Below, piece after piece: positions 3,598 through 21,134 of a DNA stretch of 30,789 nt. This DNA comes from an uncultured Ruminococcus sp. Its GTDB lineage: Bacteria; Bacillota; Clostridia; UBA1212; UBA1255. The stretch is from positions 1 to 30,789 of the forward strand of contig CACZOW010000065.1 of the NCBI GenBank assembly GCA_902782885.1, given 5' to 3'. Under the pieces are notes generated by a model. The model did no database searches. It was not told the origin of the DNA and saw only the letters and a list, made by a program, of their open reading frames with translations. Each line of letters begins with the position of its first letter. Position 1 is the stretch's first letter. Position numbers and translations under genes: made by a program.

Positions 3598-3609
3598 TGG
3601 AGGCCGATC

Positions 3610-5364
3610 ATGAATACAGTAAATATTAAAATCGACGGTGTTGCTCTGACTGTGCCGGCCGGCATTACCGTGCTGGAAGCCGCCAGAATGGCCAACATCA
3701 CTATCCCGACCCTTTGCTTCCTGAAAGACATCAACCAGATCGGCGCCTGCCGTATGTGCGTGGTGGAGATCAAAGGCGCCAGAGCGCTGCAGGCAGCCTG
3801 CGTATATCCCGTGTCTGAAGGCCTTGAAGTCATCACGAACTCGCAGAAGGTGAGAGACGCGCGCAAAGTAACGCTGGAACTGATCCTGTCCAACCACGAC
3901 CGTCAGTGCCTTACCTGCGTGCGTTCCGAGAACTGCGAACTGCAGAAGCTGTCCAAGCAGCTTAATGTGAAGGATATCCGCTTCAAAGCGCTCACCGATA
4001 AAGAGACGCTGCCCGTCGACAATAGTTCCGCGAGCATCGTGCGCAACAACAACAAGTGCGTGCTCTGCCGCCGCTGCGTCGCCGTCTGCCAGAAAGTACA
4101 GACCGTGTCCGTTATCGAGACCATCGAGCGCGGCTTCCGCACCCGCATCGGCTGTGCCTTCGACAAGCCTCTGGGTGAAACGTCCTGCGTCAACTGCGGC
4201 CAGTGCATCGCGGTCTGCCCCGTGGGCGCGCTTACCGAAAATACGCACATCCCGCAGGTTTGGGACGCAATCGCCGATCCCGACAAATACGTGGTGTTCC
4301 AGACCGCTCCCGCGGTGCGCGCCTCCATCGGCGAAGCTTTCGGCCTGGCTATCGGCGAACGCTGCACCGGCAAGATGGTATCCGCGATCCGCAGACTGGG
4401 CGTGGACAAAGTGTTCGACACCGATACCGGCGCCGACCTTACGATCATGGAAGAAGGCACTGAACTGCTCAACCGCATCAAGAACGGCGGCAAGCTGCCT
4501 CTCATCACTTCCTGCAGCCCCGGCTGGATCAAATTCTGCGAGCACAACTACCCCGACTTCCTTGACAACCTTTCTTCCTGCAAATCTCCTCACGAGATGT
4601 TCGGCGCGGTGCTTAAAACCTACTACGCGCAGAAGATGGGGATCGATCCCGCGAAGATGTTCGTTGTCTCCGTAATGCCCTGTACCGCCAAGAAGTTCGA
4701 GGCGCAGCGCGAAGAAATGAAGAACTCCTCCGGGTACGTGGACGTTGACGCCGTGCTCACCACCAGAGAACTGGCCAGAATGATCGAAGAAGCCGGAATC
4801 GACTTTAAGGCTCTGCCCGATACCGATTTCGACGATCCTATGGGCAACGCTACCGGCGCCGGCGTCATCTTCGGCGCTACGGGCGGCGTAATGGAAGCCG
4901 CGCTGCGCACCGTTGCCGACGTGCTCACCGGCGAGTCCGCTCCCATGGAGAAGATCGACTACCATGCCGTACGCGGCATCGAAGGCATCAAAGAAGCCGA
5001 AGTCGAAGTCGCGGGCATCAAAGTCAGACTCGCTGTCGCCAGCGGGCTGGGCAACGCGCGTAAGCTGCTCGATTCTATCCGCGCCGGCAAGGCACAGTAT
5101 GATTTCATCGAGATCATGGCCTGCCCGGGCGGCTGCGTCAACGGCGGCGGCCAGATCATCCAGCCCTCCAGCGTACGCAGCTGGACCGATCTGCGCACCG
5201 AACGCGCGAAGATCCTTTACGATGAGGATAAAGCGCTTCCGCTCCGCAAATCGCACGACAACCCGATGATCAAGGAACTGTACGCCGAGTTCTACGGAAA
5301 TCCCGGCAGCGAGAAGGCGCACCACGATCTGCACACGCATTACATTGCGAGAGGCAAGTATTGA
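3610..5364 (+). CDS. hydA: [FeFe]-hydrogenase catalytic subunit, group A (probably A3)
   Basis: H-cluster motifs TSCSPGW, MPCTAKKFE and EIMACPGGCVNGGG; N-terminal [2Fe-2S]; His-ligated HDRQCLTC...C; two [4Fe-4S] motifs (CVLCRRC, CVNCGQC). Confidence 0.96.
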   Translation: MNTVNIKIDGVALTVPAGITVLEAARMANITIPTLCFLKDINQIGACRMCVVEIKGARALQAACVYPVSEGLEVITNSQKVRDARKVTLELILSNHDRQCLTCVRSENCELQKLSKQLNVKDIRFKALTDKETLPVDNSSASIVRNNNKCVLCRRCVAVCQKVQTVSVIETIERGFRTRIGCAFDKPLGETSCVNCGQCIAVCPVGALTENTHIPQVWDAIADPDKYVVFQTAPAVRASIGEAFGLAIGERCTGKMVSAIRRLGVDKVFDTDTGADLTIMEEGTELLNRIKNGGKLPLITSCSPGWIKFCEHNYPDFLDNLSSCKSPHEMFGAVLKTYYAQKMGIDPAKMFVVSVMPCTAKKFEAQREEMKNSSGYVDVDAVLTTRELARMIEEAGIDFKALPDTDFDDPMGNATGAGVIFGATGGVMEAALRTVADVLTGESAPMEKIDYHAVRGIEGIKEAEVEVAGIKVRLAVASGLGNARKLLDSIRAGKAQYDFIEIMACPGGCVNGGGQIIQPSSVRSWTDLRTERAKILYDEDKALPLRKSHDNPMIKELYAEFYGNPGSEKAHHDLHTHYIARGKY

Positions 5365-5413
5365 TCCGATCATACATCTGATCGCAACGCGCCCTCGGAT
5401 CATTGACTAAAAC

Positions 5414-5445
5414 AAAACCCCGGAGATCTTTTCTTCGGGGTTTTT
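5414..5445 (+). terminator. Intrinsic terminator of the hyd operon, possibly bidirectional
   Basis: AAAACCCCGGAGA-loop-TCTTCGGGGTTTTT stem followed by a T-tract, 50 bp after the hydA stop. Confidence 0.85.
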
Positions 5446-5479
5446 CTAAAACCGCACGGGCATGACAGAGGAATTGACA

Positions 5480-7246
5480 ATGATAAACAAGAAAACTGCT
5501 CACGATAAAATTACTGTTGCCGCCGCGCTGCTGCTGGCGGTGCTGATCGCCATCCCGCTTTTTGCGCCTGTGACCGGACGGACAGCCTTCGCCGCGGATA
5601 CCGGACGGCGCATGAGTGTGTCGAAGACCGAATTTGAGTACGGGGAACCGATCCTGATAACGGCCGAAGGGACCGGGAAGGACTGGGTCGGACTGTACCG
5701 GCCCGACGGCAAAGCATCGCTGCTGTGGGTGTATATCGACCGCGCCGCAGGGGGCGTCGGTTCCGGAACGGAATTTGACATATTGACCGAAGGCGTGATA
5801 AACGACGGCTCGGAGTATGTTGACGTTACGCCCGGAAAATACGTCCTTCGCCTGATGCCGGATGATACGTCCGACCTGTCGCGGGCGATCAAAACGGTCG
5901 AGATAACCGTAATAGAGAAAAGCGGTGCGCCGGCGGCTCCGGCAGTCATCGAATCGGCGGAATATGCGCCTTCCGGTGCGGGCTTCGGCGGCGGGACGCT
6001 AACCGTAAAGCTGGAAGACGGCACTTCGGCAGCGGCGGTAGTACCTTACTGGGCAAACGACAGCGGCATTCTGGAAGACTATACTTCGCTTCCGAAATTC
6101 AGGATCCGCGGCGGCAAAGCAGCGTACACGTATCCGGAGTCGATGATAATACCGGCCGGCGCCACCGAACTGCGTTTATTTACCGCGGATAAGAAGGGCA
6201 AACTCTCCGAAACATTTTATTCAATACGGCTCCCCGAAGGCAGCGCGTTCCGGCTGCCCGAAACGGAGCCGCTGGAATTCCAGGTCATCAGCGATATCCA
6301 TATAACCAAAAACGACGCTCACATACACAACACTCATTTCCTCGGAGTAATGACAGACATCGCGATATTGTCCCCGAAAAGCAAGGGCATATTCGTGGTA
6401 GGCGATATGGCGGACACGGGCAGTGAAGAAGAGTATGCAAAAATGAAGCAGATCCACGACGCTGTGAAGGACCTGCCGCCGCTGTACCTCGCCATAGGCA
6501 ACCACGATCTGTACGGAGGCTCGCTTCAGGACCAGAATGAGCTTTTTCTGAAATATGCCGTACTGCCCGGCGGCGGCCGGCCGGGATCGGTCCATTATGA
6601 CTTCCGGCTCGAAGGCTATCATTTCGTGTTTTTAGGCAACGACGGTCTCGAGAGGGGTGTCGATACCACCCTCGGCGAAAACACGCTTAAATGGCTCAGG
6701 AAGACCCTCGACGAGGGCCGTAACAAGTCGCGGCCCGTGTTTCTGTTCATTCATCAATCGCTATACGACACCGTCGCGGGAAGTCTGCCGGGGCAGGGCT
6801 GGAACGGCGTGGTCAATGACGCCGAATTCCGCGACATCCTGTTCCGTTATCCCGAAGTGATAATGTTCAACGGACACAGTCACTGGACGATGGATTCCGA
6901 AAGCAATATGTGGCACGAACCGGACAGACCGTACATTTTCAACACGGCGTCGACCGCCTATCTCTGGACGAGCTACAATATTGTCACCGGCGAGAATCTC
7001 GACGGCAGCCAGGGGTATTACATATATTTGTATGAGGACATGGTCGTTGTCCGCGGGCGCGATTTTGCCTCGGGGAAGTGGATCCCCGCGGCGCAATACT
7101 GCCTTACGGGCTATACGGGCGGAAGCAAAACACCGCATGCCCGCACGCGGAACCTGACAATAATAATCATCTGCGCGGCAGCCGCCATTGCAGCGCTTAC
7201 CGCCGGGATTATAATGGTTGCATTCAGGAAGCGAAAAAGAGTATAA
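5480..7246 (+). CDS. Exported, C-terminally membrane-anchored calcineurin-like metallophosphoesterase
   Basis: All five MPP motifs present (SDIH, GDMAD, GNHD, IHQ, GHSH). N-terminal signal peptide; C-terminal hydrophobic helix followed by RKRKRV. Start placed at ATG 5480 after GAGGAA, not at 5462. Confidence 0.85.
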   Translation: MINKKTAHDKITVAAALLLAVLIAIPLFAPVTGRTAFAADTGRRMSVSKTEFEYGEPILITAEGTGKDWVGLYRPDGKASLLWVYIDRAAGGVGSGTEFDILTEGVINDGSEYVDVTPGKYVLRLMPDDTSDLSRAIKTVEITVIEKSGAPAAPAVIESAEYAPSGAGFGGGTLTVKLEDGTSAAAVVPYWANDSGILEDYTSLPKFRIRGGKAAYTYPESMIIPAGATELRLFTADKKGKLSETFYSIRLPEGSAFRLPETEPLEFQVISDIHITKNDAHIHNTHFLGVMTDIAILSPKSKGIFVVGDMADTGSEEEYAKMKQIHDAVKDLPPLYLAIGNHDLYGGSLQDQNELFLKYAVLPGGGRPGSVHYDFRLEGYHFVFLGNDGLERGVDTTLGENTLKWLRKTLDEGRNKSRPVFLFIHQSLYDTVAGSLPGQGWNGVVNDAEFRDILFRYPEVIMFNGHSHWTMDSESNMWHEPDRPYIFNTASTAYLWTSYNIVTGENLDGSQGYYIYLYEDMVVVRGRDFASGKWIPAAQYCLTGYTGGSKTPHARTRNLTIIIICAAAAIAALTAGIIMVAFRKRKRV

Positions 7247-7325
7247 TATAATTTGGTAGTCAGCAGGGCATTGCGATATGCCTTGCCGCGGTATACCGGG
7301 AAACGTTTGAACACAGGAGGTGGGA

Positions 7326-7955
7326 ATGATGAAAAAAACGGCAGCAGAAGCCGGACTTTCGCCGAATTTGGCCAAAGAGACGCTGAAGCCTTCCGCGTTT
7401 TTGAATCCTGTTCCCGTCGTCATGTGTTCTGCGCAGCACGCGGGTATATCCGATATCATTACGGTGGCCTGGTGCGGCACGGTCAATTCCGATCCGCCCA
7501 TGATCTCCGTTTCTGTCAGGAAGAGCCGTTTTTCCTATGATCTGATCAAAAACAGCGGCAAAGTCTGCGTCAATCTCGTTTCGGAAGCGCTGCTCGGCGC
7601 CTGCGACCTGTGCGGCGTCAAGTCCGGCAGAGACGTCGACAAATTTGCCGCGACCGGGCTCACTCCGGTCAGTTCGCCGATCCACGGGATACCGATGATA
7701 GGCGAGGCACCGGTGAATCTGGAGTGTTCCGTTGACCGCGTTATCGAACTGGGCTCGCACGACATGTTTCTGCTTAACGTTGACGGCGTATATGTTTCAA
7801 GATCGATCATTGACGCCGGGGGCAAAGCGGATCTCAAAAAAGCGCGGCTGGTGGCGTACTGCCACGGCGAGTACTACGCACTGGGTAAAATATTGGGATT
7901 TTTCGGTTATTCCGTCGCGGGCGCGGACGCGCTGGCCCGGCGGACAAGAAGGTAA
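7326..7955 (+). CDS. Flavin reductase-like / flavoredoxin-family FMN-binding protein
   Basis: NPVPVVMC, ITVAW..VNSDPPMISVSVRKSR.SY, CG..SGRDVDKF, LEC.V...ELGSHDMF. AGGAGG RBS at 7315-7320 favours ATG 7326. Confidence 0.85.
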   Translation: MMKKTAAEAGLSPNLAKETLKPSAFLNPVPVVMCSAQHAGISDIITVAWCGTVNSDPPMISVSVRKSRFSYDLIKNSGKVCVNLVSEALLGACDLCGVKSGRDVDKFAATGLTPVSSPIHGIPMIGEAPVNLECSVDRVIELGSHDMFLLNVDGVYVSRSIIDAGGKADLKKARLVAYCHGEYYALGKILGFFGYSVAGADALARRTRR

Positions 7956-7973
7956 AGCATAGAGGTATCACAA

Positions 7974-9086
7974 ATGAAAAAGGGTATCATCGTAAAACTG
8001 ATCTTACTGGTTCTGACGGCTGCGGCAGTGCTGGCCGCCTCGGGCTGCGGACTGTTCCCGAAGGAAGACAACATCAAAGCGCCCGCACTCAAAACGCCCA
8101 AGCCGGTGGAATATAACTTCTATCAGGTCGTAAAGGGCAACATCATCAAAGGCTCTTCCGGCACCGGCAGCATGACTTCGATATATTACTACAAGCATGC
8201 GTTCCCGTCTTCCGGCGGCATCATCAGAGCGATCCATGTTTCGCTGGGTCAATACGTGAACAAAGGCGATCTGCTGGTGGAGACCGACAATTCCTCCCTG
8301 GAACTGGATTATCTGGAGGCGACGATCGCATACACCGAATCCAAAGAGAAATTCGATGCCATCGCGGCCCGCTACAACCGCGGCGAGGTGGGCGAGACGG
8401 AGTTCCGCATCGAACAGCTTAAATTCCAGTATGTCGAGACGAAGTACAGGAATCTCAAGAACGCGTACGAAAATACCAAACTCGTCGCGCAGGTGTCCGG
8501 AAAAGTCGTATATATCAACACGGAGTATACCACCAACACCAACAAGGAGATCGTAGCGGGCGAGACCATCGTCGCCATTGACTCCGCCGACGACAAATAC
8601 ATGTTCCTGGTGTTCGACAAATCCGTCGAGGCCATGAACGATTCCTCCGCTACGCCGCAGCAGTTCCGCGTGGGAACTGTATTGACGCTGTCGCTCAATC
8701 CTTCCAAGACCGATCCGGATCCCATCAAATTCGAAGGCGTGATCGTGGGCACCGATCATATCATTAAAGACACCGGCATCGGTTATATCGATACGGCAAA
8801 ATATTACTGCAAACTCACGTCGTACCCCGATTACGGCGGCGACGAATCCAGACAGATCTCCACCGGTACGCTGATCCGATACACATATGTGGAGGATTCC
8901 CGTGAAGACGTGCTCATTATCCCGCTCAGCGCGTGCTACGAGTACAACGGCAAGCACTACGTGTACATGCTGGACTACTCCACCAACCTCAAAAAAGAGG
9001 TCTACGTAGAGCTCGGTCTGGCCAACGAAACGTACGTTGAAGTCGTATCCGGTCTGCACAAAGGCGACCGCATCATTACCGGCTGA
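7974..9086 (+). CDS. Efflux periplasmic adaptor (MFP/MacA-like) lipoprotein
   Basis: Lipobox AASGC; lipoyl-like halves VSLGQYVNKGDLL and LVAQVSGKV flanking an alpha-hairpin; C-terminal VLIIPLSAC...VELGLAN..YVEVVSGL..GD. Confidence 0.85.
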   Translation: MKKGIIVKLILLVLTAAAVLAASGCGLFPKEDNIKAPALKTPKPVEYNFYQVVKGNIIKGSSGTGSMTSIYYYKHAFPSSGGIIRAIHVSLGQYVNKGDLLVETDNSSLELDYLEATIAYTESKEKFDAIAARYNRGEVGETEFRIEQLKFQYVETKYRNLKNAYENTKLVAQVSGKVVYINTEYTTNTNKEIVAGETIVAIDSADDKYMFLVFDKSVEAMNDSSATPQQFRVGTVLTLSLNPSKTDPDPIKFEGVIVGTDHIIKDTGIGYIDTAKYYCKLTSYPDYGGDESRQISTGTLIRYTYVEDSREDVLIIPLSACYEYNGKHYVYMLDYSTNLKKEVYVELGLANETYVEVVSGLHKGDRIITG

Positions 9087-9132
9087 GCCGCGCTCCTGAA
9101 CTTTCAGCACGGCTTCTTGGAGGATTTGCTAA

Positions 9133-11967
9133 ATGATAAAGTCAGTTCTCAGTAAAATGGCGAATAATATATGGCTGTTTATCTGTCTGACTCTGGGTTC
9201 GCTTTTGATCACCTCAGTTCTTTCGAGCATACCGATCTATACCGACGGCGCGCTGAGAAAGATGCTGAATTCCGAGCTGGTGAATTTCCAGTACGATACA
9301 GGCAAGACCGCGGGCGGGTACTACACCAGGATCAATCTCGCCAGCGACTACAGTTCCGTCGGAGCGCTCGATCTTTTCGACACGGCCCGGGACAAGCTAC
9401 ATTACGCCTTTGAAAATAATGACATCCCGTATACGGATTCCTACGAGAGCGGCATCCTGAGACTGATCAGCCAGCGCGGCAACGGCATGCTGTTTACGTC
9501 GCAGTATCAGATGCGCTACATGACCGGAATGCTCAACCACATCGACATCATTGAAGGGCGCCGCTACCGCGATTCCTTTGACGGCGTATATGAGGCGATC
9601 ATTTCGGAGCAGGCTTATAATTCCAACGTTATCCATCTGAATCAGGTATATTATTTCGGTCTGCCGCTGATACACGGCGACAGTACGCCGGTTATCGCGA
9701 TCCGCTTCGTAGGCGTCTTCCGCATGCACGGCGATGCCGCGGGATATTTTTACGGATCCGACGAAGGCTATCCGCTGGATTTCTTTGTGTCCCCCGAGAG
9801 CTTTAAAGCCGGGATGTATACATACGCCAACGCTAAATACGTCACTTCGATCGAATTCTACCATAACGTCGAATTCCGCGATATGGACCGCAAGGATCTC
9901 AACCGTTTCAGCAATGTGCATAATGAGATCCGCGCATATCTGAAAACTTTTGAATCCGGCCATAAGGAACTTGTGTTCCCGCTGAACAAGACCATCGAGA
10001 ACTTTGTCGGCAAAGGCTGGGAGATGGAACTCACCATGTGGGTGTTCAACGCGCCGATAATCATCATGCTGGCGTATTACCTGTTCATGGTCTCCAAACT
10101 GATCATTGAGGAGGACCGGAACGAGATATCGTCGCTGCGCAGCCGCGGCGCTACGTCCCGCCAGATATTCTCCCGTTATATCATCGAATGCGGGATAATT
10201 ATCGCGTTCTCGCTGCTGCTGGGACCGCCTCTGGGCCTGGTGCTGGCGCAGGTGATAGGCAGCGCCAACGGTTTCCTGGAATTCGTGAACCGCTCCGGTC
10301 TGGTGCTCCGGCTGGTGCCGGCGGCATATCTGTACGCTGTGCTGGCCGGGCTGCTGTTCATGGTGATGGTGCTTATTCCCGCGTATTCCGCCACGCGCAG
10401 CACGATAGTGCAGCACAAACAGAAAAAAGCGCGCAAGAATCAGAAGCCGTTCTGGGAAAAGGCTTTCCTGGATTTCATTTTCCTGGGTGTTTCGATCTAT
10501 CTGCTGATCACGTACACCAGCCACGGCGACATGGTGCTGAAGTCCAGCGGCAGCGTCGACCCGTCGATCTATTTCATATCCACACTGTTTATAATATCCG
10601 CCGGCATGGTCTTCCTGAGGATCTATCCGTATATTCTCAAGCTCATCTTCGGGATATTCAAACGCCGCATGTCGCCGCCGGTCTATGCTACTTTCGTTCA
10701 GGTCTCGCGTGGCAGCAACGACAACCGCTTCCTGATCATGTTCCTGATCATGACGGTGTCAATAGGCATCTACAGTTCCGCTTCCGCCCGTATCATCAAC
10801 AACAACGTCGCGGAAGTCGCCGCCTACAAATGCGGCGCCGACCTGGTGATCTCGCCCGACTGGGGAAATCTGGAAGATGATACTTCCGCCAAGACCACGT
10901 CTTCCGATATTACCCGCATACCGCTCTCGGATTACATGTCCATCAGCAGCTTTGAAAACTTCACGCAGGTCTCGGAGGTGCGCTACGCCACCGTAAAAGG
11001 GCTGTACGATTTTGAATGGTACGACGGCATCCGGGTGATGGCGATCCAGCCGTATGAGTTCTCGCAGGTGGTGGATTTCCGTTCGTCGCTGTTGGATACC
11101 GAGGCCAAGGACGTCATCCACTGGTACCACTACATCAATCTGATGCAGGATTATCCCACGGCCGTGCTGGTGTCGCGGGGGATTGCCGACATGTTCGATC
11201 TGGTAGTAGGGTCAACGCTGGAAGTTGACATCAACCCGTGGGGCACGCCGGAATCGCAGAAAGTTCCGGTGATGAACTGCTACGTGCTGGCGATCATAGA
11301 TTACTGGCCCAACTATTACGACGGCGCGGTCAATACCGACGTCGTAAACCAGCTGGTCGTCATGAACTACTCCTACCTTAATTCCGTGAAAGCTAACGCC
11401 ACTTTCGATATGTGGATCGATCTCAAAGAGGGAACGACCAAAGACGAGGTGCAGAAGGCGCTCGCGGAACGGGGACTGGAAGACGGTATCTCCGCGATTC
11501 GCTACAAGACCGAATTTATCAGCCGCGGCAAGGGCGATTCTACGACGATGGCGCTGAACGGCTCGCTTTCCATGGGCTTCGTGGCGACAATGATGATCAC
11601 CCTGATCGGGTTCCTGCTTTACTGGATCATGAATATGCGCAAGCGCAAGCTTCAGTTCGGTATCCTGCGGGCAATGGGTCTCTCCCGCGGCAAGACGATA
11701 TTCATGCTGACCCTGGAGCAATTGCTCACCACCGGCGTGGCCGTGCTGGTTGGCATCTTCCTGGGCATACTGGCCACGCGCCTGTTCATGCCCATCCTGA
11801 GCCAGACCTACATCAGCCTGCTGCCGCTGCACCTGACTTACAGCATTGTCGACACGCTGCGCATCCTGGCTGTGGTGCTGGTGATGATCGTCATCGGTCT
11901 GATCGTGCTGGGCGTATTTATACGGAAGCTGAAGATCAACGAAGCGGTGAAGATTGGAGAAGAGTGA
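9133..11967 (+). CDS. FtsX/MacB-like ABC permease with two fused permease repeats
   Basis: EDRNEISSLRSRGAT and RKLQFGILRAMGLS coupling motifs; two large extracytoplasmic domains; multiple hydrophobic helices. Confidence 0.88.
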   Translation: MIKSVLSKMANNIWLFICLTLGSLLITSVLSSIPIYTDGALRKMLNSELVNFQYDTGKTAGGYYTRINLASDYSSVGALDLFDTARDKLHYAFENNDIPYTDSYESGILRLISQRGNGMLFTSQYQMRYMTGMLNHIDIIEGRRYRDSFDGVYEAIISEQAYNSNVIHLNQVYYFGLPLIHGDSTPVIAIRFVGVFRMHGDAAGYFYGSDEGYPLDFFVSPESFKAGMYTYANAKYVTSIEFYHNVEFRDMDRKDLNRFSNVHNEIRAYLKTFESGHKELVFPLNKTIENFVGKGWEMELTMWVFNAPIIIMLAYYLFMVSKLIIEEDRNEISSLRSRGATSRQIFSRYIIECGIIIAFSLLLGPPLGLVLAQVIGSANGFLEFVNRSGLVLRLVPAAYLYAVLAGLLFMVMVLIPAYSATRSTIVQHKQKKARKNQKPFWEKAFLDFIFLGVSIYLLITYTSHGDMVLKSSGSVDPSIYFISTLFIISAGMVFLRIYPYILKLIFGIFKRRMSPPVYATFVQVSRGSNDNRFLIMFLIMTVSIGIYSSASARIINNNVAEVAAYKCGADLVISPDWGNLEDDTSAKTTSSDITRIPLSDYMSISSFENFTQVSEVRYATVKGLYDFEWYDGIRVMAIQPYEFSQVVDFRSSLLDTEAKDVIHWYHYINLMQDYPTAVLVSRGIADMFDLVVGSTLEVDINPWGTPESQKVPVMNCYVLAIIDYWPNYYDGAVNTDVVNQLVVMNYSYLNSVKANATFDMWIDLKEGTTKDEVQKALAERGLEDGISAIRYKTEFISRGKGDSTTMALNGSLSMGFVATMMITLIGFLLYWIMNMRKRKLQFGILRAMGLSRGKTIFMLTLEQLLTTGVAVLVGIFLGILATRLFMPILSQTYISLLPLHLTYSIVDTLRILAVVLVMIVIGLIVLGVFIRKLKINEAVKIGEE

Positions 11968-11968
11968 C

Positions 11969-12676
11969 ATGGAAACAGGCGAATTTATTTTGCGCGCGGA
12001 AAATGTTACACGGGATTTCTACCGCAAGTCAGAGGTCATTCACGCGGTACGCGGCGTCAACGTAAATATAAAACGCGGCACGTTCAATATTCTTTGCGGC
12101 CGTTCCGGTTCGGGCAAGACCACGCTCATCAACATGCTGGCTGCGATCGATACGCCGACCTCCGGTCAGATCTTTTTCGAAGACGTGAACGTTTCGCTCT
12201 TGAATGAGCGCAAGCGCGACGAACTGCGCCGCAGGAATATCGGCATCATTTTCCAGAATACCGCGCTGCTGGCGCAGATGTCCGCGGTAGAGAACGTGGA
12301 ATTCTCGCTCTCGGTATCCGGGAAGAAAATCAAAAACAAGCGCGACCTCGCTATCGAGTGGCTGGATAAGCTCGGCATACGCGAGCGCCGCAACCACATG
12401 CCGGCGGAGATGTCGGGCGGCGAGCAGGCGCGCGTTGCCATCAGCCGGGCCCTGGTGCACAGTCCCAAACTTGTCCTGGCGGACGAACCTACGGCGGAAC
12501 TGGATTCCAGAACGTCGTTCAGGGTCGTCGACCTGTTCCGCGAACTGGTGGACAAGCAGGGATTGACCATCGTAATGACTACCCACGACGTCAACATCAT
12601 GGACGTTGCCGACACGATCTATACAATGGAGGACGGTGTAATTGTCAGTGAAAGAAAAGGAAACAGATCTTTATAA
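11969..12676 (+). CDS. ABC ATPase, LolD/MacB family
   Basis: GRSGSGKTT, IFQ, MSGGE, LVLADEP, TH. ATG 11969 after GGAGAAGAG preferred over TTG 11954. Confidence 0.9.
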   Translation: METGEFILRAENVTRDFYRKSEVIHAVRGVNVNIKRGTFNILCGRSGSGKTTLINMLAAIDTPTSGQIFFEDVNVSLLNERKRDELRRRNIGIIFQNTALLAQMSAVENVEFSLSVSGKKIKNKRDLAIEWLDKLGIRERRNHMPAEMSGGEQARVAISRALVHSPKLVLADEPTAELDSRTSFRVVDLFRELVDKQGLTIVMTTHDVNIMDVADTIYTMEDGVIVSERKGNRSL

Positions 12677-13808
12677 TTCCATCGGCGATACCACCGGACT
12701 TAGCAAAAAAGAACGGGCCGAACTTATAAAACGCGCAAAGCAGGAAGCCAAAGAGGCTGCCATGCGCAAGCGTACCGAAGAACGCGAAGCCGCGGAAAAG
12801 GTCAAAGCCGCCAAATTCGAGACCGAGCGCAAGGCCGGCAAGCATAAAACGCTCGCCGAGATCACCGAAGGCAAGGACGATTACGAACAGGACTTCAAAG
12901 TGCCGGAAGGCGTGGTCGTTTACTGCGAAAACCTTATAAAGCTCTATAAGGTCGGGGATATCGAGGTAATGGCGCTGCAGGGCCTGGATCTTTCCGTAAA
13001 AGACGGCGAGATGGTGGCTATCATCGGCAACAGCGGCAGCGGCAAATCGACGCTGATGAATATCATCGGCGGACTTGACCGTCCTACCGCGGGGCGCATC
13101 TACGTCAACGGCATCAACCTGCTCAAACTGGACGACAATCAGATGCTGCAGTACATGCGCGAGACCGTGGGCTTCGTTTGGCAGAACACCGCGCGCAATA
13201 TGATACCGTATCTGAATGCCCTGGACAATGTCAAGCTCGTCATGCAGATGGCGGGCAGACTTGACTCCAACCGCGCCAACGAGCTGCTGGAGATCGTCGG
13301 ACTGGAGCACCGCAAAAAGAGCAAGATGCATGAGCTTTCGGGCGGCGAGCAGCAGCGCGTTGCCATCGCCATCGGCCTTGCCAACAAACCGCGTATACTG
13401 CTGGCGGACGAGCCCACGGGCGCCGTTGACACCCGCACCACCGCACAGATCATGAGCGTGTTCCACAAGCTGAATACCGAGATGGGCGTCACGATCATCA
13501 TCGTTACCCATGACCGGCAGCTCTCTCATATGGTGCCGCGCGTCGTTACGATCAGCGACGGCCGTATCGGTACGGAATTCATCCGCCGCGAAGAAATAGA
13601 TGTAAACAGCGATGAAATGATGAACGCCACCGCCGGGCATGATTCCGGATCTCATATCGAGTACGGGTTTATCGACGGCCGCCGGCGTCTGTTCATACCC
13701 GAATATTATCTCTCTAAAGTAGGTCTGCATGAAAAGTGTAAAGTAGGCATAGACGTGAAAGATGACCGCCTTGAGCTTTTCAAGCCTGAGGATGAAAATA
13801 TTAAATGA
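12642..13808 (+). CDS. ABC ATPase, LolD/MacB family, with charged N-terminal extension and AbrB/SpoVT-like C-terminal tail
   Basis: GNSGSGKST, LSGGE, ILLADEP, TH; Lys/Glu/Ala-rich N-terminus of about 85 aa; C-terminal IDGRRRLFIP..L..VG..segment. TTG start after GGAGG is likely but not certain. Confidence 0.88.
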   Translation: MSVKEKETDLYNSIGDTTGLSKKERAELIKRAKQEAKEAAMRKRTEEREAAEKVKAAKFETERKAGKHKTLAEITEGKDDYEQDFKVPEGVVVYCENLIKLYKVGDIEVMALQGLDLSVKDGEMVAIIGNSGSGKSTLMNIIGGLDRPTAGRIYVNGINLLKLDDNQMLQYMRETVGFVWQNTARNMIPYLNALDNVKLVMQMAGRLDSNRANELLEIVGLEHRKKSKMHELSGGEQQRVAIAIGLANKPRILLADEPTGAVDTRTTAQIMSVFHKLNTEMGVTIIIVTHDRQLSHMVPRVVTISDGRIGTEFIRREEIDVNSDEMMNATAGHDSGSHIEYGFIDGRRRLFIPEYYLSKVGLHEKCKVGIDVKDDRLELFKPEDENIK

Positions 13809-14461
13809 AGCTTCGAACAATTCCGGCACTGCTGGTATTAATCTTATTGATCGCATCCGCCGGCTGCACCGATATGAGCAACCGCAACCCGATCGTTACG
13901 TTCACGCTGGATCCGGACGTGAGCTCTCATATCGGCGGCACGTTCGTGGTGGAACTGTTTCCGGACAAAGCGCCGAATTCGGTCAACTATTTTATCGATC
14001 TGGTCGTGAACGGATACTATAACAAATTCAATGTTTCGCAGGTGCATGAAGATTCGATGGTGGTGTTCGGCGATCCCTGGTACAAGGGCGGCAACAACCG
14101 CGTGATAAAAGGTGAGTTCGCGGACAACGGCTTTACGCAGAACGACGTTGACTTCGTACGCGGTACGGTGGGACTCGCGCTGGACGAGGGCGATCCGGAC
14201 TCGAATTACGGCGATTTCTTCATTGTCCTCGACGATGCCGCGAAAGATTCAATGAACGGCAAATTCTGCGCGATCGGCCGCGTTACCGAAGGTCTCGAGA
14301 TCCTGGATGAGATCAGCCGGCTGCAGACGACCTCATCGCTTAAATACCAGCCGTACGCGTCGGTGCGTACGCTTACCGCTACTGTAGAATTAAAAGGACG
14401 CGTATACCCCACAGCGGAAACGCTGGAGCGGAAAAATAAACCCGGTTACTGGGATGAATGA
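13805..14461 (+). CDS. Cyclophilin-fold lipoprotein with a degenerate PPIase active site
   Basis: NPIVT, ELFPDKAPNSVNYF, IKGEFADNGF, RGTV, FFI, GRVTEGLEILDEI; lipobox SAGC; ATGA overlap with the upstream ATPase. Confidence 0.82.
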   Translation: MKLRTIPALLVLILLIASAGCTDMSNRNPIVTFTLDPDVSSHIGGTFVVELFPDKAPNSVNYFIDLVVNGYYNKFNVSQVHEDSMVVFGDPWYKGGNNRVIKGEFADNGFTQNDVDFVRGTVGLALDEGDPDSNYGDFFIVLDDAAKDSMNGKFCAIGRVTEGLEILDEISRLQTTSSLKYQPYASVRTLTATVELKGRVYPTAETLERKNKPGYWDE

Positions 14462-14485
14462 CCCCCGACAGAGGAGGAGTTTTTT

Positions 14486-15790
14486 ATGAGAACAAAAAGC
14501 GCATTTACGCTTAAAACACGGCTGCTGTTGATGCTGCTCGCGCTGGTGATGGTATTGCCCGCCTCGGGCTGCACCGGAGGCGGCGACCCAGAAAGCACAT
14601 ACCGGCCCGGCATGGAAGTCGATGAAAAATACGCCAACAGCTACCAGCCCGTCTTCGACGGTAAATCCGTGCTGAATATCGAAGTCACGCTCAACGCGGG
14701 CCATTACGCCGAGATCCTGGAAGCGCCCGAAGCCGAGCAGTTCTACAGCGCGGACATTAAACTGGGCAGCGACACGGTCAGCAAAGTCGGATTCCGCACT
14801 TCGGGCAACACCGATCTGTCCGAGTATTCGGGCGACGTGGGTGACCGCTATAATTTTAAAGTGAAATTCGACAAGTACGTGGACAAGCAGAAGTACCGCA
14901 AGCTTGACGAGATGTACCTGCTCAACTTCAACGGCGACCCGTCCTATATGCGCATGTTCCTCGCGTTCGGCGCGTTTCGCGCGATCGGCGGTGCCGCGCC
15001 GCTGTGCACCTACGCCACGCTTTCCATCAACGGCAAATCGCAGGGCCTGTACCTGGCGGTGGAGAGTATCGACGACGCGTTCCTGAAGCGCGTTTTCGGA
15101 GACAACAACGGCGTGAATCTCTACAAAGCGGGCGAAGGTACGGATCTGCTTACCACGGCTTCGCTTGCGCTCCTGGATCAGAAAAACGGCGATGATACGA
15201 CTAAAGACGACGTCGACCGCCTTATCCGGGTGCTGAACACGATGCCGGACGGCGGAAAAGGCGATATCGAGAGCGTGCTGGATGTGGACAGCGTGCTGCG
15301 CTATATCGCCGTGTGTACCGGTCTGGGAATCTACAAGAGCTACCTTGCCAAGAATCCGGACAACTTCTATCTCGCGGCCAAAGACGGCAAGTTCACCATC
15401 GTGCCCTGGAAGACCGTGAGCGCGTTCGGCGGCGCCAGCAAGGACAACGGTGCGACTGCCGAATTGTCCCCGTACGAGCCCGTTTACCGCGTAACGATGG
15501 CGGAGCGTCCGCTCGTATCAAAGCTGCTGGCTGTTGACGAATACGTCACGCGCTATGAAGGTTACGTTACCGCGGTGCGCGAATACCTCGACGGCATCAG
15601 CGCGGCCATCGACACGCTGGACGGACTCATCGGCGACATCATCAAGAACGATCCCGCGCCGTTCTACACTTACGAGCAGTATCAAATCGCCATAGGCAAG
15701 GCGGACGGGCAGGGCAACACCACCGGCATCATCTCCGCCGCCGAATACGCCTCGCTCCGCGCGGCGTACCTCAAGGGGCTGAATTTCTGA
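14486..15790 (+). CDS. CotH-kinase-family lipoprotein, probable pseudokinase
   Basis: VGFRTSGN, FKVKFDKY, DPSYMR, INGKSQGLYLAVE, NLYKA, DVDSVLRY, NFYL, IVPW; lipobox ASGC; GAGGAGG RBS. Confidence 0.82.
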   Translation: MRTKSAFTLKTRLLLMLLALVMVLPASGCTGGGDPESTYRPGMEVDEKYANSYQPVFDGKSVLNIEVTLNAGHYAEILEAPEAEQFYSADIKLGSDTVSKVGFRTSGNTDLSEYSGDVGDRYNFKVKFDKYVDKQKYRKLDEMYLLNFNGDPSYMRMFLAFGAFRAIGGAAPLCTYATLSINGKSQGLYLAVESIDDAFLKRVFGDNNGVNLYKAGEGTDLLTTASLALLDQKNGDDTTKDDVDRLIRVLNTMPDGGKGDIESVLDVDSVLRYIAVCTGLGIYKSYLAKNPDNFYLAAKDGKFTIVPWKTVSAFGGASKDNGATAELSPYEPVYRVTMAERPLVSKLLAVDEYVTRYEGYVTAVREYLDGISAAIDTLDGLIGDIIKNDPAPFYTYEQYQIAIGKADGQGNTTGIISAAEYASLRAAYLKGLNF

Positions 15791-15841
15791 TCTCAGCGCC
15801 GAAAAATCGCGAAAAATCGCGCAAAACAGCATCTCCCGCGC

Positions 15842-15870
15842 TTGCCGAAACCGGCGCGTTGTGGTAGAAT
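15842..15870 (+). promoter_or_regulatory. Sigma-A-type promoter of pta-ackA
   Basis: TTGCCG, 17-bp spacer, TAGAAT with an extended TGn. Confidence 0.65.
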
Positions 15871-15917
15871 ATCCGGCGGATTTTTTATCCGCCACTTATT
15901 GTGAAAGGAAATGATAG

Positions 15918-16913
<996 letters not shown>

Positions 16914-16925
16914 GGAGGTCTCCCG

Positions 16926-18143
16926 ATGAAGATACTCGTTATCAACTGCGGCTCCAGCTCTCTTAAATATCAGCTCATCGATATGAGCGATGAATCCGTC
17001 ATCTGCAGCGGTATCTGCGACCGCATCGGCAATCCCGCCTCCAGCAGCATCAGCTACAAGGCCAAAGGCGAGAAGTGCAAGATCGAAGTGCCGTTCCCGA
17101 CACATACCGAAGCGTTCCTGAAGCTCGTGGAACTCATGACCACCGGCGACACCGCGGTGATCGCGGACAAGAGCGAGATCGATGCCATCGGCCACCGCAT
17201 AGTCCAGGGCGCCGAATTTTTCAAGCATTCGGAACTGGTCAACGAAGCGGTCATTCAAAAGATCGACGAGATCTCTCCGCTGGCGCCGGTGCACAACCCC
17301 GCCCACGTGCAGGGTCTCCGCTGCGCCGAGCAGATCTTCGGTGACGTGCCGAACGTCGTGGTTTTCGATACCACGTTCCATCAGACCATGCCGCCCAAGG
17401 CTTACATGTTCGGTATTCCGTACGAGTATTATGAGAAATACCACATCCGCCGCTACGGCGCGCACGGCACCAGCCACAAGTATGTCGCCGGCATTGCGTC
17501 CGAACTGATGGGCCGCAAAGACCTTAAGATCGTCACGTGCCACCTGGGCAACGGTTCCTCAATTTCCGCAGTCAAGAACGGCAAGTGCATTGACACCTCC
17601 ATGGGCCTCACGCCTCTGGGCGGTGTGACTATGGGCACCCGTACCGGCGACCTTGACCCCAGCGTAGTGTGCGAGATCAGCAAGATCACCGGTCTTGCGG
17701 GCAACGACCTCAGCAACTACCTCAACAAGCAGTGCGGCTTCCTCGGCATGACGAAAGGCTTCTCGTCCGATAAGCGCGATCTGGAGCTCGCGGTCGCGGA
17801 TCCCGACGATCCGCACAACGAACTCTCCACCATCGCCAGCGACGTGTACGATTACCAGATCAAAAAGTATATCGGCGCGTACGCGGCGGCAATGGGCGGC
17901 CTTGACTGCGTCGTATTCACCGGCGGTATCGGCGAGAACGACATCAACGTCCGCAAAGACGCCTGCGAAGATATGGAATTCCTGGGCATCAAGATCGATC
18001 TGGAAAAGAACAATCGCAAGGCCAGAGGAGAAATCCTCGACCTGTCCGTTCCCGGATCCCGCTGCAAAGTGTACGTCATTCCCACTAACGAGGAACTGGC
18101 GATCGCCCGCGAGACGCAGGAACTGGTCCTCGGCGGCAAATGA
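16926..18143 (+). CDS. ackA: Acetate kinase
   Basis: LVINCGSSSLKY, GHRIVQG, APVHNP, VFDTTFH, YGAHGTSH, CHLGNGSS, DTSMG.TPL.G..MGTR.G, FTGGIGEN, IPTNEE. Confidence 0.97.
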   Translation: MKILVINCGSSSLKYQLIDMSDESVICSGICDRIGNPASSSISYKAKGEKCKIEVPFPTHTEAFLKLVELMTTGDTAVIADKSEIDAIGHRIVQGAEFFKHSELVNEAVIQKIDEISPLAPVHNPAHVQGLRCAEQIFGDVPNVVVFDTTFHQTMPPKAYMFGIPYEYYEKYHIRRYGAHGTSHKYVAGIASELMGRKDLKIVTCHLGNGSSISAVKNGKCIDTSMGLTPLGGVTMGTRTGDLDPSVVCEISKITGLAGNDLSNYLNKQCGFLGMTKGFSSDKRDLELAVADPDDPHNELSTIASDVYDYQIKKYIGAYAAAMGGLDCVVFTGGIGENDINVRKDACEDMEFLGIKIDLEKNNRKARGEILDLSVPGSRCKVYVIPTNEELAIARETQELVLGGK

Positions 18144-18186
18144 TCTGCCGGTCCCGTCAGATCTGCGCGGCTGCAAAAAAATGTTG

Positions 18187-18215
18187 TTGACACGGAGCCG
18201 AACATACTGTATAAT
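18187..18215 (+). promoter_or_regulatory. Consensus sigma-A promoter of the rpmF operon
   Basis: TTGACA (18187-18192), 17-bp spacer, TATAAT (18210-18215). Confidence 0.88.
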
Positions 18216-18267
18216 ATCTCGGTCTGTGTAAGACAAGGGCGTTTAGGCGCACAGGAGGTGTATACAA

Positions 18268-18450
18268 ATGATTTGTCCTAAGAGAAGATGGTCCAAAGCC
18301 AGAACGCGCTCCAGAAGAGCGAACTGGAAACTTGAGACTCCGAATATAGTGAGATGTCCGCATTGCCATGAGTTCAAGCTGCCCCATACCGTATGCGGAA
18401 ACTGCGGCTACTATAAGGGACGCGAAGTCGTTGCGATGGGCGAAGAATAA
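18268..18450 (+). CDS. rpmF: 50S ribosomal protein L32, Zn-binding form
   Basis: PKRRWSKARTRSRRA...CPHC...PHTVCGNCGYYKGREV; AGGAGG RBS. Confidence 0.95.
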   Translation: MICPKRRWSKARTRSRRANWKLETPNIVRCPHCHEFKLPHTVCGNCGYYKGREVVAMGEE

Positions 18451-18468
18451 TACTGCTTTTTCTTCACT

Positions 18469-19803
18469 ATGAAAAAAGGGTTAATAAGTTACGTGGAACC
18501 CGGCAGTGCTGCCTACGATGGCGGCATATTGCCGGGTGATCGTTTATTGTCCGTTAACGGCCGGAAGATCAAAGATATATTCGATTACCGCTTTTACACG
18601 TCGGAGGAGAACGTTTCGCTCGAGCTGGAAGACGCGGACGGGGAGGAATATATCGTTGACATCGAGAAGGATCCGGACGAAGACCTGGGCATTAGCTTTG
18701 CTGAGCCGCTGATCGACGCGGACCGGGGCTGCTGCAATAACTGCGTTTTCTGCTTTATTGACCAGATGCCGCCCGGAATGCGCGAGACCTTGTATTTCAA
18801 GGACGACGATACGCGGCTGTCGTTTCTGACGGGCAATTATGTGACCCTTACCAATATCGGCTACGCCGAGCTTGACCGGCTGGTCAAATACCGGCTGTCG
18901 CCGATCAACGTATCCGTACATACCACCAATCCCGAACTGCGCTGCCGTATGCTGCGGCACAAGGGCGCGGGGGACATCCTGAAAAAGCTGGACGTGCTGC
19001 GAAAGGGCTGTATTACCGTCAACGCGCAGATCGTGCTTTGCCCCGGCATCAACGACGGCGCCGAACTTGAACGCACGCTGGATGATCTGCTGTCATTTTC
19101 GGAGTGCGTTGCCAGCGTTTCCGTCGTGCCGGTAGGTCTTACGAGATACCGCGAAGGGCTCCCTGAACTGAGATTGCCCACGCGCGAGGATGCGCTCGCC
19201 GTGCTGGACACCGTAGCCCGCTTCCAGCAGAAAGCGCTCGTCAAAGCGGGCACGCGCTTCGTTTACGCCGCGGACGAATTTTATATCTACGCGGGCCGTG
19301 AACTGCCGGAATATGAGGAATACGAAGAGTTCCCGCAGCTGGAAAACGGCGTGGGAATGCTGAGACTGCTGGATTTTCAGGTATGCGAGTACTTGCGTTC
19401 CGACGGCCGGCGGCTCCGCAAAAAGCTGGGCGAAGGTTTTAAGCGGGATGTGGACGCGGCTACCGGCGTCGCGGCTTATGACTTTATAGAAAAACTTTGC
19501 CGCTACGTCGAGCGGGAGTTTCCGGGGCTGAACGTCCGGGTACACCGCATCGTCAACGATTTCTTCGGTCACTCGGTGACCGTGTCGGGATTGATCACCG
19601 GCGGCGATCTGGTGGCGCAGTTAGAGGGCAAAATGCTCTCCCGCGAACTGCTGATAACTGAGAACATGCTGCGCAGCGGCGAGACCGTGTTCCTGGATGA
19701 CGTGACGATGGAACAGGCCGCGGAACGGCTGAACATTAATATCACGCCTGTGCCGGACAGCGGCGCGGCGTTCGTAAAAGCACTTTTGGGAGTAACGAAA
19801 TGA
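18469..19803 (+). CDS. PDZ + DUF512 putative radical-SAM-like Fe-S protein
   Basis: N-terminal PDZ-like GILPGDRLLSVNG; CCNNCVFCFIDQMPPGMRETLYFKDDD.RLSFL.GNYVTLTN; PQLENGVG; typical position upstream of der. Confidence 0.88.
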   Translation: MKKGLISYVEPGSAAYDGGILPGDRLLSVNGRKIKDIFDYRFYTSEENVSLELEDADGEEYIVDIEKDPDEDLGISFAEPLIDADRGCCNNCVFCFIDQMPPGMRETLYFKDDDTRLSFLTGNYVTLTNIGYAELDRLVKYRLSPINVSVHTTNPELRCRMLRHKGAGDILKKLDVLRKGCITVNAQIVLCPGINDGAELERTLDDLLSFSECVASVSVVPVGLTRYREGLPELRLPTREDALAVLDTVARFQQKALVKAGTRFVYAADEFYIYAGRELPEYEEYEEFPQLENGVGMLRLLDFQVCEYLRSDGRRLRKKLGEGFKRDVDAATGVAAYDFIEKLCRYVEREFPGLNVRVHRIVNDFFGHSVTVSGLITGGDLVAQLEGKMLSRELLITENMLRSGETVFLDDVTMEQAAERLNINITPVPDSGAAFVKALLGVTK

Positions 19804-21134
19804 GCAAACTGCCAGTGGTCGCCGTGATCGGACGGCCGAACGTAGGAAAATCGTCATTCTTCAATTTCGTCACCGGACGACGTATCTCCATCGTGGAAGA
19901 CACGCCCGGGGTGACGCGCGACCGCATTTACGAAAAAGTAGAGTGGCGGGGCAGATATTTTACATTGATCGATACCGGCGGCCTTGAAGTAGGGTCGGAC
20001 GACCCCATCACCGTGCAGATGCGGCGGCAGGCGGAAGTCGCGGCTGAACTCGCGGACGTGATACTGTTCATGGTTGACGGACAACAGGGCCTCACCGCCG
20101 GCGATCATGAGATCGCAACGCTGCTCCGGCGCGTGCAGAAACCCGTGCTGGTGGCAGTCAACAAAGTTGATTCGGTCGGCGACGTTCCCCCCGAAGTATA
20201 CGAGTTTTACAATATGGGATCGGGTGAGTTATATCCGATATCTTCCGCGCACGGCCTCGGCATCGGAGAGATCCTGGACGCGATATTCGAAGTACTTCCC
20301 GAGCCCGGGGATGCGGACGCGGACGAAGACTGCGTGAACGTGGCTATTGTAGGCAAACCCAACGCGGGCAAATCTTCGCTGGTCAATAAGATCCTGGGCG
20401 AGCAGCGCGTGATCGTCAGCGACGTGCCGGGCACGACGCGGGACGCGATTGACACATATACGGAAGTAAACGGGCAGAAATACTGCATTATTGACACCGC
20501 GGGCCTGCGCAAACGCGGCCGCATCTCGGACAACATCGAAAGATACAGCACGATGCGTAGCCTGGGCGCCGTTGACCGGTCACAGGTCGTGGTGCTGATG
20601 ATTGACGCCGTTGACGGCGTGACTGAGCAGGACACCAAGATCGCCGGCTACGCGCTCGAGCAGGGCAAGGCGATGATCATTGCCGTCAATAAATGGGACC
20701 TCGTGGAAAAAGACACGAATACCATGGAGAAATACCGCCAGGAAGTGCTGAATAAATTCAATTTCATCATGTTCGCGCCCGTGGTGTTCTTCTCCGCGCT
20801 CACCGGTTCGAGAGTGAACAAACTTTTCGATACGATCATCAAAGTCCGCGACGCCGCGGCCCGCAGGATTTCCACCGGTATGCTCAACGATTGTCTGGCG
20901 GAAGCCATGATCACCCAGCAGCCGCCCTCCGACAAAGGCAAGCGCCTGAAGCTTTACTACATGACCCAGATCGGCGTCGAACCGCCCACTTTCGTGATAA
21001 AATGCAACTCAAAGGCGCTGTTCCACTTCTCATATCTCCGCTACCTGGAAAATCAGCTGCGCAAAAAATTTGACTTTACAGGAACGCCGATTAGGTTTAA
21101 AATTAGGGAGAAGGATGAGGAAAGCGGGGATTAA
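19800..21134 (+). CDS. der: Ribosome biogenesis GTPase Der (EngA)
   Basis: Tandem G-domains: GRPNVGKSS/DTGG/NKVD and GKPNAGKSS/DTAG/NKWD; C-terminal KH-like domain (GTPIRF). Confidence 0.97.
   Translation: MSKLPVVAVIGRPNVGKSSFFNFVTGRRISIVEDTPGVTRDRIYEKVEWRGRYFTLIDTGGLEVGSDDPITVQMRRQAEVAAELADVILFMVDGQQGLTAGDHEIATLLRRVQKPVLVAVNKVDSVGDVPPEVYEFYNMGSGELYPISSAHGLGIGEILDAIFEVLPEPGDADADEDCVNVAIVGKPNAGKSSLVNKILGEQRVIVSDVPGTTRDAIDTYTEVNGQKYCIIDTAGLRKRGRISDNIERYSTMRSLGAVDRSQVVVLMIDAVDGVTEQDTKIAGYALEQGKAMIIAVNKWDLVEKDTNTMEKYRQEVLNKFNFIMFAPVVFFSALTGSRVNKLFDTIIKVRDAAARRISTGMLNDCLAEAMITQQPPSDKGKRLKLYYMTQIGVEPPTFVIKCNSKALFHFSYLRYLENQLRKKFDFTGTPIRFKIREKDEESGD

Follow-up and report, generated by a model that had tools for sequence, protein, structure and literature searches.

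Seven co-directional genes on the + strand (positions 7320–15790) of the stretch of DNA analyzed here, a 30,789-nucleotide (nt) contig of an uncultured rumen bacterium of the Clostridia, Ruminococcus sp. (CACZOW010000065.1; the window), encode a flavin-reductase-like protein (FlavRed), an adaptor lipoprotein, an FtsX-type permease, two unlike ATPases of the ATP-binding cassette (ABC) kind (ATPase1 and ATPase2), a cyclophilin-fold lipoprotein (CypL) and a CotH-fold lipoprotein (CotH), in that order, as an open reading frame (ORF) check of the window confirmed. Do these genes specify one envelope machine, or a transporter together with neighbors that can be parted from it? An earlier note, made from the sequence of the window, had proposed a machine: an asymmetric transporter with two ATPases, of which two apparently dead enzyme folds, the cyclophilin and CotH, are parts. 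Related genomes uphold the asymmetric two-ATPase transporter and do not show the pseudoenzymes to be parts of it. The reading we favor, to which we give about even chances, is of a composite operon whose modules can be separated. What is new is a conserved, putatively heterodimeric ATPase pair with an AbrB-like tail, within the already known type VII kind of ABC system.

A type VII ABC transporter with a fused permease

The AlphaFold2 (AF2) model of the permease (mean predicted local distance difference test score, pLDDT, 71) has ten transmembrane (TM) helices in the predicted layout TM1-ECD1-TM2-4, TM5-6, TM7-ECD2-TM8-10, where the extracytoplasmic domains (ECDs) are predicted to span residues ~37–297 and ~557–806. 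The model contains two FtsX-type modules, each with four TM helices and a large ECD between the first and the second, which is the arrangement by which type VII ABC systems (MacB/FtsX superfamily) are recognized, and the transporter belongs to that kind. Foldseek searches with the model ranked E. coli YbbP first, with a full-length match (9ge6_A; E 3e-19; 941 columns), ahead of BceB, S. pneumoniae Spr0695, MacB, LolC/E, YtrF and HrtB. NCBIfam holds no model for the permease. The two FtsX stretches and the match to YbbP bear out the earlier assignment of a type VII locus with a fused permease.

The adaptor is probably of the membrane-fusion type. It scored 73 bits against TIGR01730 (RND_mfp; cut-off 94.9; E 2e-20) and 28.1 bits against Biotin_lipoyl_2 (cut-off 29.8; E 1.8e-6), and its match to the MacA model (E 1.3e-9) covered the C-terminal 60 residues only and fell below the curated cut-off. 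The adaptor gene adjoins the permease gene in 69 of 76 related loci. A TolC-family gene (PF02321, OEP) was not found in the genome of the window, which is 70.7% complete; control genomes do match.

Two unlike ATPases, one with a putative AbrB-like tail

ATPase1 and ATPase2 are 32% identical, and in both the Walker A and signature motifs, Walker B including its Glu, and the H-loop are intact. The earlier claim of two distinct, intact ATPases extends well beyond the window: 63 of 64 ATPase1 orthologs and all 59 ATPase2 orthologs have every catalytic motif intact, and the two proteins form separate conserved orthogroups in every lineage examined. Judged by this sequence conservation, the two-ATPase arrangement is an old and defining trait of an uncharacterized transporter family. 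The best NCBIfam models for the ATPases were LolD, FtsE, DevA, MacB and YbbA, all scoring below their equivalog cut-offs (for LolD, 199 and 213 bits, with the cut-off at 307.75), and therefore no specific orthology is implied. ATPase2 is the most conserved gene product of the cluster, with 72–98% identity within the order. The exact starts of both genes are uncertain because both are TTG; ATPase1 would have 235 residues if it started at the ATG at 11969.

The C-terminal segment of ATPase2 is kept across the whole transporter family, including the Paenibacillaceae. Its AF2 model (pLDDT 76–84) has the topology β-β-β-α-β-β, and 15 of the top 16 Foldseek matches in the PDB were AbrB, SpoVT, MazE or a related histone-like protein, with root-mean-square deviations (rmsd) of 1.2–4.2 Å and E-values of only 0.2–2.2 because the domain is short. 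Pfam searches at relaxed thresholds yielded only weak hints of MraZ and MazE. The model and the ranking of its structural matches point to an AbrB-like tail. Proteins with this fold usually form dimers, which makes its presence as a single copy, on only one of the ATPases, odd; its partner may be DNA, a protein or the other ATPase.

Other segments of the ATPases vary between lineages. A Lys/Glu-rich N-terminal extension of ~65 residues (window 12642–12840) is unique to the ATPase2 of the window's genus; family f5 instead has an N-terminal extension on ATPase1, acidic and ~60 residues long (L019:5939-6200). The motif SLAE[IL]T.GKDDY...F..PE, just ahead of the ATPase2 core, is conserved across the order.

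Comparison with characterized type VII systems

The best structural match comes from E. coli YbbAP-TesA, a type VII ABC transporter of stoichiometry 2 YbbA:1 YbbP:1 TesA (PMC12646458; PDB 9GE6-9GE8). The window system shares with it a single fused, pseudo-symmetric permease of 10 TM helices, with two FtsX-type halves, two linker TM helices and two outer-face domains (topology as in PMC12646458), as well as an exported-protein gene beside the transporter genes. The two permeases are, however, only ~11% identical in sequence; YbbA forms a homodimer, whereas here there are two different ATPases, one of them AbrB-tailed; and a putative MacA-like adaptor is present here and absent there. The exported partner there is an active SGNH hydrolase and the neighbors here are a degenerate cyclophilin and a CotH protein; a domain search among the cluster proteins recognized no SGNH hydrolase (TesA-type) domain.

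The combination of a membrane-fusion adaptor (putative here), an FtsX-type permease and an ATPase of the MacB/LolD clade is also that of MacAB-TolC, S. pneumoniae Spr0693-0695 (PDB 5XU1) and B. subtilis YknXYZ. MacB and Spr0695 are homodimeric permeases with 4 TM helices and a single ATPase type, in MacB fused to the permease, whereas in the window system the permease halves are fused to each other and the ATPases are separate and differ. LolCDE, which acts on lipoproteins, is likewise a type VII machine and is asymmetric in that its permease halves are unlike, but the halves are two separate permeases, the ATPase is of one type (a LolD homodimer), and LolA and an outer membrane are needed. 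Membership in LolCDE was considered and rejected: the window system has one fused permease, two ATPases that score below the LolD cut-off, and no carrier gene in the cluster. FtsEX, with its partners EnvC, PcsB, CwlO or RipC, is a further type VII ABC system, and its output is a conformational change in a partner at the outer face; the machine proposed in the earlier note is patterned on it. Unlike the window system, it has a homodimeric 4-TM FtsX, coiled-coil hydrolase regulators as partners, one ATPase type and no adaptor.

To our knowledge, all characterized type VII ABC systems (MacB, LolCDE, FtsEX, YbbAP, BceAB and HrtBA) use a single ATPase type. The known type VII architectures would be extended by this cassette, which is widespread in Bacillota and combines a fused, asymmetric permease with two conserved, unlike and competent ATPases, an AbrB-like domain being carried by one of them. 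The full-text literature that we searched, with incomplete coverage, held no description of a characterized member of the family, of a heterodimeric type VII system or of a link between a cyclophilin and FtsX. That no member of the family was found in the NCBIfam and literature searches run accords with the remark in the earlier note that the six genes from adaptor to CotH were not recognizable as a characterized system.

The cassette, CypL and CotH are separable in relatives

A scan of species-representative genomes with an alignment of the permease identified 76 loci, and the order to which the window belongs was surveyed in 46 species genomes from six families. Throughout the mapped loci the adaptor, permease, ATPase1 and ATPase2 genes form one four-gene cassette. 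Its hosts are metagenome-assembled genomes (MAGs) of rumen and gut Clostridia (Oscillospirales-like), other Clostridia, Paenibacillus and Cohnella; in the last two genera, which are cultivable and where experiments are possible, the order is ATPase1-adaptor-permease-ATPase2. The genes that follow the cassette differ between lineages. SBP_bac_1 lipoproteins of ~512 residues, one or two per locus, are encoded downstream in 35 loci of Paenibacillaceae, and four loci have membrane-anchored GH10/GH43 xylanases with carbohydrate-binding modules there; several Clostridia have nothing related. No type I importer permease genes were recognized beside the SBP_bac_1 genes in the flanks examined. Examples of downstream regions from Paenibacillus and Cohnella are L053:12763-14259, L085:12765-16039, L046:12803-17131 and L090:12768-15965.

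Within the order, the full arrangement FlavRed-adaptor-permease-ATPase1-ATPase2-CypL occurs in family f1 (genera g1, the window's own, g2, g3 and g5) and in family f4. CypL trails the cassette in five genera of two families (g1, g2, g3, g5 and g8), and within this conserved order permease identity falls to 44–49% and CypL identity to 40–49%. In f1 and f4 the gene immediately upstream of the adaptor is FlavRed, separated from it by 6–53 nt in all loci examined. The modules also occur apart. In family f5 (genus g13, 8 of 8 genomes) the cassette is located elsewhere and stands alone, and genus g4 and family f3 have FlavRed only. Families f2 (4 of 4 genomes) and f6 (2 of 2) have no cassette; FlavRed is immediately followed by a CypL ortholog, with a 4-bp overlap in f2, and the active sites of these CypLs, which are lipoproteins too, are likewise degenerate. 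A CotH gene behind CypL is confined to g1, g2 and g3; in f6 CotH is unlinked. The note's expectation that both pseudoenzyme genes would be conserved next to the transporter thus held for CypL in five genera, in an order where cassette and CypL are also found separately, and for CotH in three genera only.

A CypL tree with canonical lipoprotein cyclophilins as the root groups the degenerate CypLs together (support 100/99) and divides them into two clades, one linked to the cassette (99/97) and one not (93/88). One change of arrangement therefore explains all of the linkage, and no repeated assembly is called for. Since FlavRed and CypL are adjacent without the cassette in f2 and f6, the cassette is nested inside an older gene pair. 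With two sister clades, insertion and deletion of the cassette each cost one step on the CypL tree; the backbone of the FlavRed tree was unresolved, and no chimeric ATPase2 remnant was seen at the C-termini of FlavRed proteins.

The order-specific pair of FlavRed with an apparently dead cyclophilin lipoprotein is itself a small unexplained association. In the transporter-free families, a gene for a cytoplasmic flavin-reductase-like protein and one for a surface protein related to peptidyl-prolyl isomerases (PPIases) form a tight, conserved pair (loci L099, L100, L102, L103, L104 and L110). In f6, two same-strand genes with overlapping or short spacing lie behind the pair; they encode proteins of 304 and 467 residues with signal-like N-termini and no recognized family (L099:3618-5956, L100:3762-6100).

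A composite operon or a machine with docked partners

In the composite operon that we favor, the first module would be a self-sufficient four-gene type VII ABC cassette composed of an adaptor lipoprotein, a fused, pseudo-symmetric permease with 10 TM helices and a pair of unlike ECDs, and an ATPase heterodimer in which one member bears the AbrB-like tail. By analogy with MacB, LolCDE and YbbAP, ATP binding and hydrolysis at two consensus sites would drive mechanotransmission to the outer-face domains along the long TM helices. In this way a substrate, amphipathic or hydrophobic, may be extracted or expelled from the outer leaflet, and the adaptor may act as an exit conduit in a cell that has no outer membrane. 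The second module would be the older, order-specific pair of the cytoplasmic flavin-reductase-like protein and CypL, with the cassette placed exactly between them. For CypL, a cyclophilin-derived surface lipoprotein, a binding or chaperone-like role is most likely. The third module would be the CotH-family lipoprotein, added after CypL in three genera and apparently a pseudokinase in the window's genus. Co-expression is the only coupling that the data support: CypL and CotH are co-inherited neighbors of the transporter and not obligatory subunits of it. A tight operon can mislead here, as the relatives show the pseudoenzyme lipoproteins and the transporter to be separable.

Several points weigh against this reading. 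The FlavRed-cassette-CypL order survives to 44–49% permease identity, across five genera and two families, a persistence greater than is usual for unrelated neighbors. The start-stop overlap of CypL and ATPase2 is retained in several genera, the cassette and CypL were lost jointly in genus g4, and across the wider family the gene behind the cassette repeatedly encodes an exported protein. Type VII systems with outer-face partners exist, TesA with YbbAP being one (PMC12646458). Because exported trailing proteins recur and type VII systems can have outer-face partners, it is still plausible that CypL acts as a partner. Transport mechanism and direction are, moreover, drawn by analogy from relatives sharing only 11–16% identity, and the gene context indicates no substrate.

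Much of this would be expected if CypL, and CotH where present, docked on an ECD as a scaffold, a substrate presenter or a regulated effector, a reading that we nevertheless consider unlikely. Such docking would parallel TesA-YbbP, EnvC/PcsB/RipC-FtsX and LolA-LolC, the first of these a precedent for an outer-face partner in a type VII system (PMC12646458). The joint loss in g4, the exported proteins that trail the cassette in other lineages, and the conservation of gene order and of a 4-bp ATPase2/CypL translational coupling in g1, g2, g3, g5 and g8 are consistent with it, as is the predicted lipid anchoring of CypL and CotH on the same membrane face as the adaptor. The cassette nevertheless does without CypL in f5, in other Clostridia and in the Paenibacillaceae; CypL stands beside FlavRed without the cassette in f2 and f6; and a single evolutionary event underlies the linkage. 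Complex prediction with mature CypL and the two isolated permease ECDs, with alignments, gave a median of 0.02 against a mark of 0.32, one of the three runs reaching 0.36, a result that weighs on neither side.

Degeneration of CypL and CotH

CypL has the cyclophilin β-barrel (PF00160, 90.4 bits, cut-off 21.7), with PPIL1, PPIL3 and PpiA/B among its PDB matches. Compared with PPIL1, in human CypA numbering, it carries the replacements R55Q, F60S, Q63V, N102E, Q111D and H126F. Among its orthologs, position 55 is Q, E or K in most and R in two, F60 is lost in nearly all, Q111 has become Asp in nearly all, and Q63 is retained in genus g5. The canonical lipoprotein cyclophilins of Gram-positive bacteria have the same fold, whereas CypL is without R55, F60, Q63, N102 and Q111. 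The nearest matches to CypL outside the order are canonical lipoprotein cyclophilins of this kind (FHR...FMIQGGDP), which have no FlavRed neighbor, and a cyclophilin encoded elsewhere in the window's genome (contig C233) is canonical. From these replacements we soundly infer that the PPIase activity of CypL is lost or strongly reduced.

CotH has the CotH domain (PF08757, 148.3 bits, cut-off 23.8) and matches B. cereus CotH (5JD9; E 2.1e-7). In an alignment with 119 homologs and 5JD9, four motifs are altered in the window protein: RTKGN to RTSGN, SYMREY to SYMRMF, NYDSY to IYKSY and PWD to PWK. B. subtilis CotH is inactivated by D228Q and D251A (PMC7821199). The two Asp positions lie 23 residues apart in 5JD9, consistent with D228 and D251. 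The window protein thus has the fold of the B. subtilis and B. cereus CotH kinases, but the two catalytic or metal-binding Asp residues of those kinases, equivalent to D228 and D251, are both Lys. Among operon-linked CotH orthologs, all four motifs are lost only in g1; those of g3 retain the Glu and both Asp residues and have lost the Lys, and the g2 ortholog has a D to N change. The g1 protein would, by these motifs, be a pseudokinase. The earlier description of two apparently dead enzyme folds accordingly fits the window, where the catalytic residues of both proteins are degenerate, and does not carry over to other genera, whose CotH keeps most of its catalytic residues.

Ratios of nonsynonymous to synonymous substitution rates (dN/dS) in unsaturated and moderately saturated pairs were 0.07–0.11 for CypL and 0.03–0.18 for CotH. 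This purifying selection means that both are working proteins and not decaying genes, and a loss of catalysis under purifying selection fits the binding role that a docked partner would have. The unlinked CypLs are equally degenerate, however, so the degeneracy did not arise with the association, and CotH joined late, in three genera, with catalytic Asp residues retained in g3.

A more specific proposal, which we rate as less likely still, would make the YbbP-like transporter with its ATPase heterodimer an asymmetric type VII machine of a new class: each of the unlike ECDs would have a job of its own, a docked dead cyclophilin lipoprotein recruited in this order (in some genera together with a CotH pseudokinase) would present or receive the substrate, and the AbrB-like tail would provide cytoplasmic control. 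If true, it would be a complex of a transporter and pseudoenzymes without a described counterpart.

The window's genome has eight CotH genes in total. The seven others lie on contigs C117, C74, C142, C263, C34, C261 and C138, mostly in larger ORFs (397–1295 residues). In congener G007 the CotH matches fall in two overlapping pieces in different frames (L004:3121-4331 = L021:10146-11356); the split may be a frameshift or an assembly error, and may hint that CotH is dispensable there.

Layout of the locus and transcription signals

The features of the cluster are listed in Table 1. Successive genes are separated by 18, 46, −14, −35, −4 and 24 nt (negative values are overlaps), and the 4-nt overlap of the CypL start with the ATPase2 stop recurs as an ATGA overlap in several genera. 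A scan of the cluster found no convincing + strand terminator inside it. The ORF coordinates and the terminator scan agree with the earlier picture of six co-directional, tightly spaced genes without an internal terminator; the note had overlooked the FlavRed gene 18 nt upstream, which is equally conserved. Downstream of cotH, pta and then ackA follow beyond a 130-nt spacer that contains hairpins and a promoter-like site.

Table 1. Genes and domains of the cluster, with positions in the window.
Feature	Position	Strand	Evidence
Flavin-reductase-like cytoplasmic protein (FlavRed), 211 aa	7320..7955	+	Pfam Flavin_Reduct, E 3e-31
Putative MacA/HlyD-type membrane-fusion adaptor lipoprotein, 370 aa, Cys25	7974..9086	+	Biotin_lipoyl_2, TIGR01730, lipobox
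Fused YbbP-like type VII permease, 944 aa	9133..11967	+	Two Pfam FtsX stretches, E 7e-21
ATPase1, MacB/LolD/FtsE-clade nucleotide-binding protein, 240 aa	11954..12676	+	ABC_tran, E 1.9e-31
ATPase2, second distinct nucleotide-binding protein, up to 388 aa	12642..13808	+	ABC_tran, E 1.1e-32
Putative AbrB/SpoVT/MazE-like swapped-hairpin domain, ATPase2 C-terminus (~residues 338–385)	13653..13796	+	AF2 model, Foldseek
CypL, cyclophilin-fold lipoprotein, 218 aa, Cys21	13805..14461	+	Pro_isomerase, E 1.9e-25
CotH-fold lipoprotein, 434 aa, Cys29	14486..15790	+	CotH, E 4.9e-43

The adaptor, CypL and CotH start with signal peptides that run into the lipoboxes LAASGC, IASAGC and LPASGC, respectively, each with its Cys, and are predicted from these to be lipoproteins. 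The lipoboxes had been pointed out before; they are kept in the orthologs of the exported proteins. Signal peptidase II (Lsp) is encoded in the window's genome. Lgt was not found in this 70.7% complete MAG and is encoded in four relatives.

The seven genes are probably co-transcribed. It is improbable that FlavRed, CypL and CotH are merely neighbors, transcribed independently and without regulation or function in common with the transporter. The modules are found apart in related genomes, CotH genes are numerous in the window's genome, and weak promoter-like matches occur within the cluster (for example at 12648–12677 and 13426–13453), all of which would suit independent neighbors. The promoter-like matches, however, lie in coding sequence and are only modestly above chance in number (18 observed, 10.4 ± 3.5 expected), and the absence of internal terminators, the conserved CypL/ATPase2 overlap and the short FlavRed-adaptor gaps in all loci examined argue for joint expression.

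Very improbable is a Lol-like system, in which the cassette would extract specific lipoproteins (CypL and CotH, or the SBP-like proteins of the Paenibacillaceae) from the outer leaflet and pass them on via the adaptor to the wall or surface. LolD models do give the ATPases their highest scores, the permease has LolC and LolE among its structural matches, and the trailing genes often encode lipoproteins. The LolD scores of 199 and 213 bits, however, are far under 307.75, YbbP and BceB fit the permease better than LolC/E, a carrier like LolA or LolB is missing from the cluster, f5 has the cassette without trailing partners, some trailing genes encode xylanases that are not lipoproteins, and CypL occurs without the cassette.

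Sequence exchange within the genus

Between the window and the closest congener genome, G004, nucleotide identity over positions 2400–21000 is a mosaic of 77–99%. Near-identical patches lie at 6000–6600 and at 14100–16200, the latter running from mid-cypL through cotH into the first part of pta. Recombination specific to the cassette was considered and rejected: synonymous divergence (dS) of the window from G004 is higher in the ABC genes, but the sliding-window mosaic (80–99%) has no breaks at the cassette borders. The mosaic suggests recent homologous exchange within the genus.

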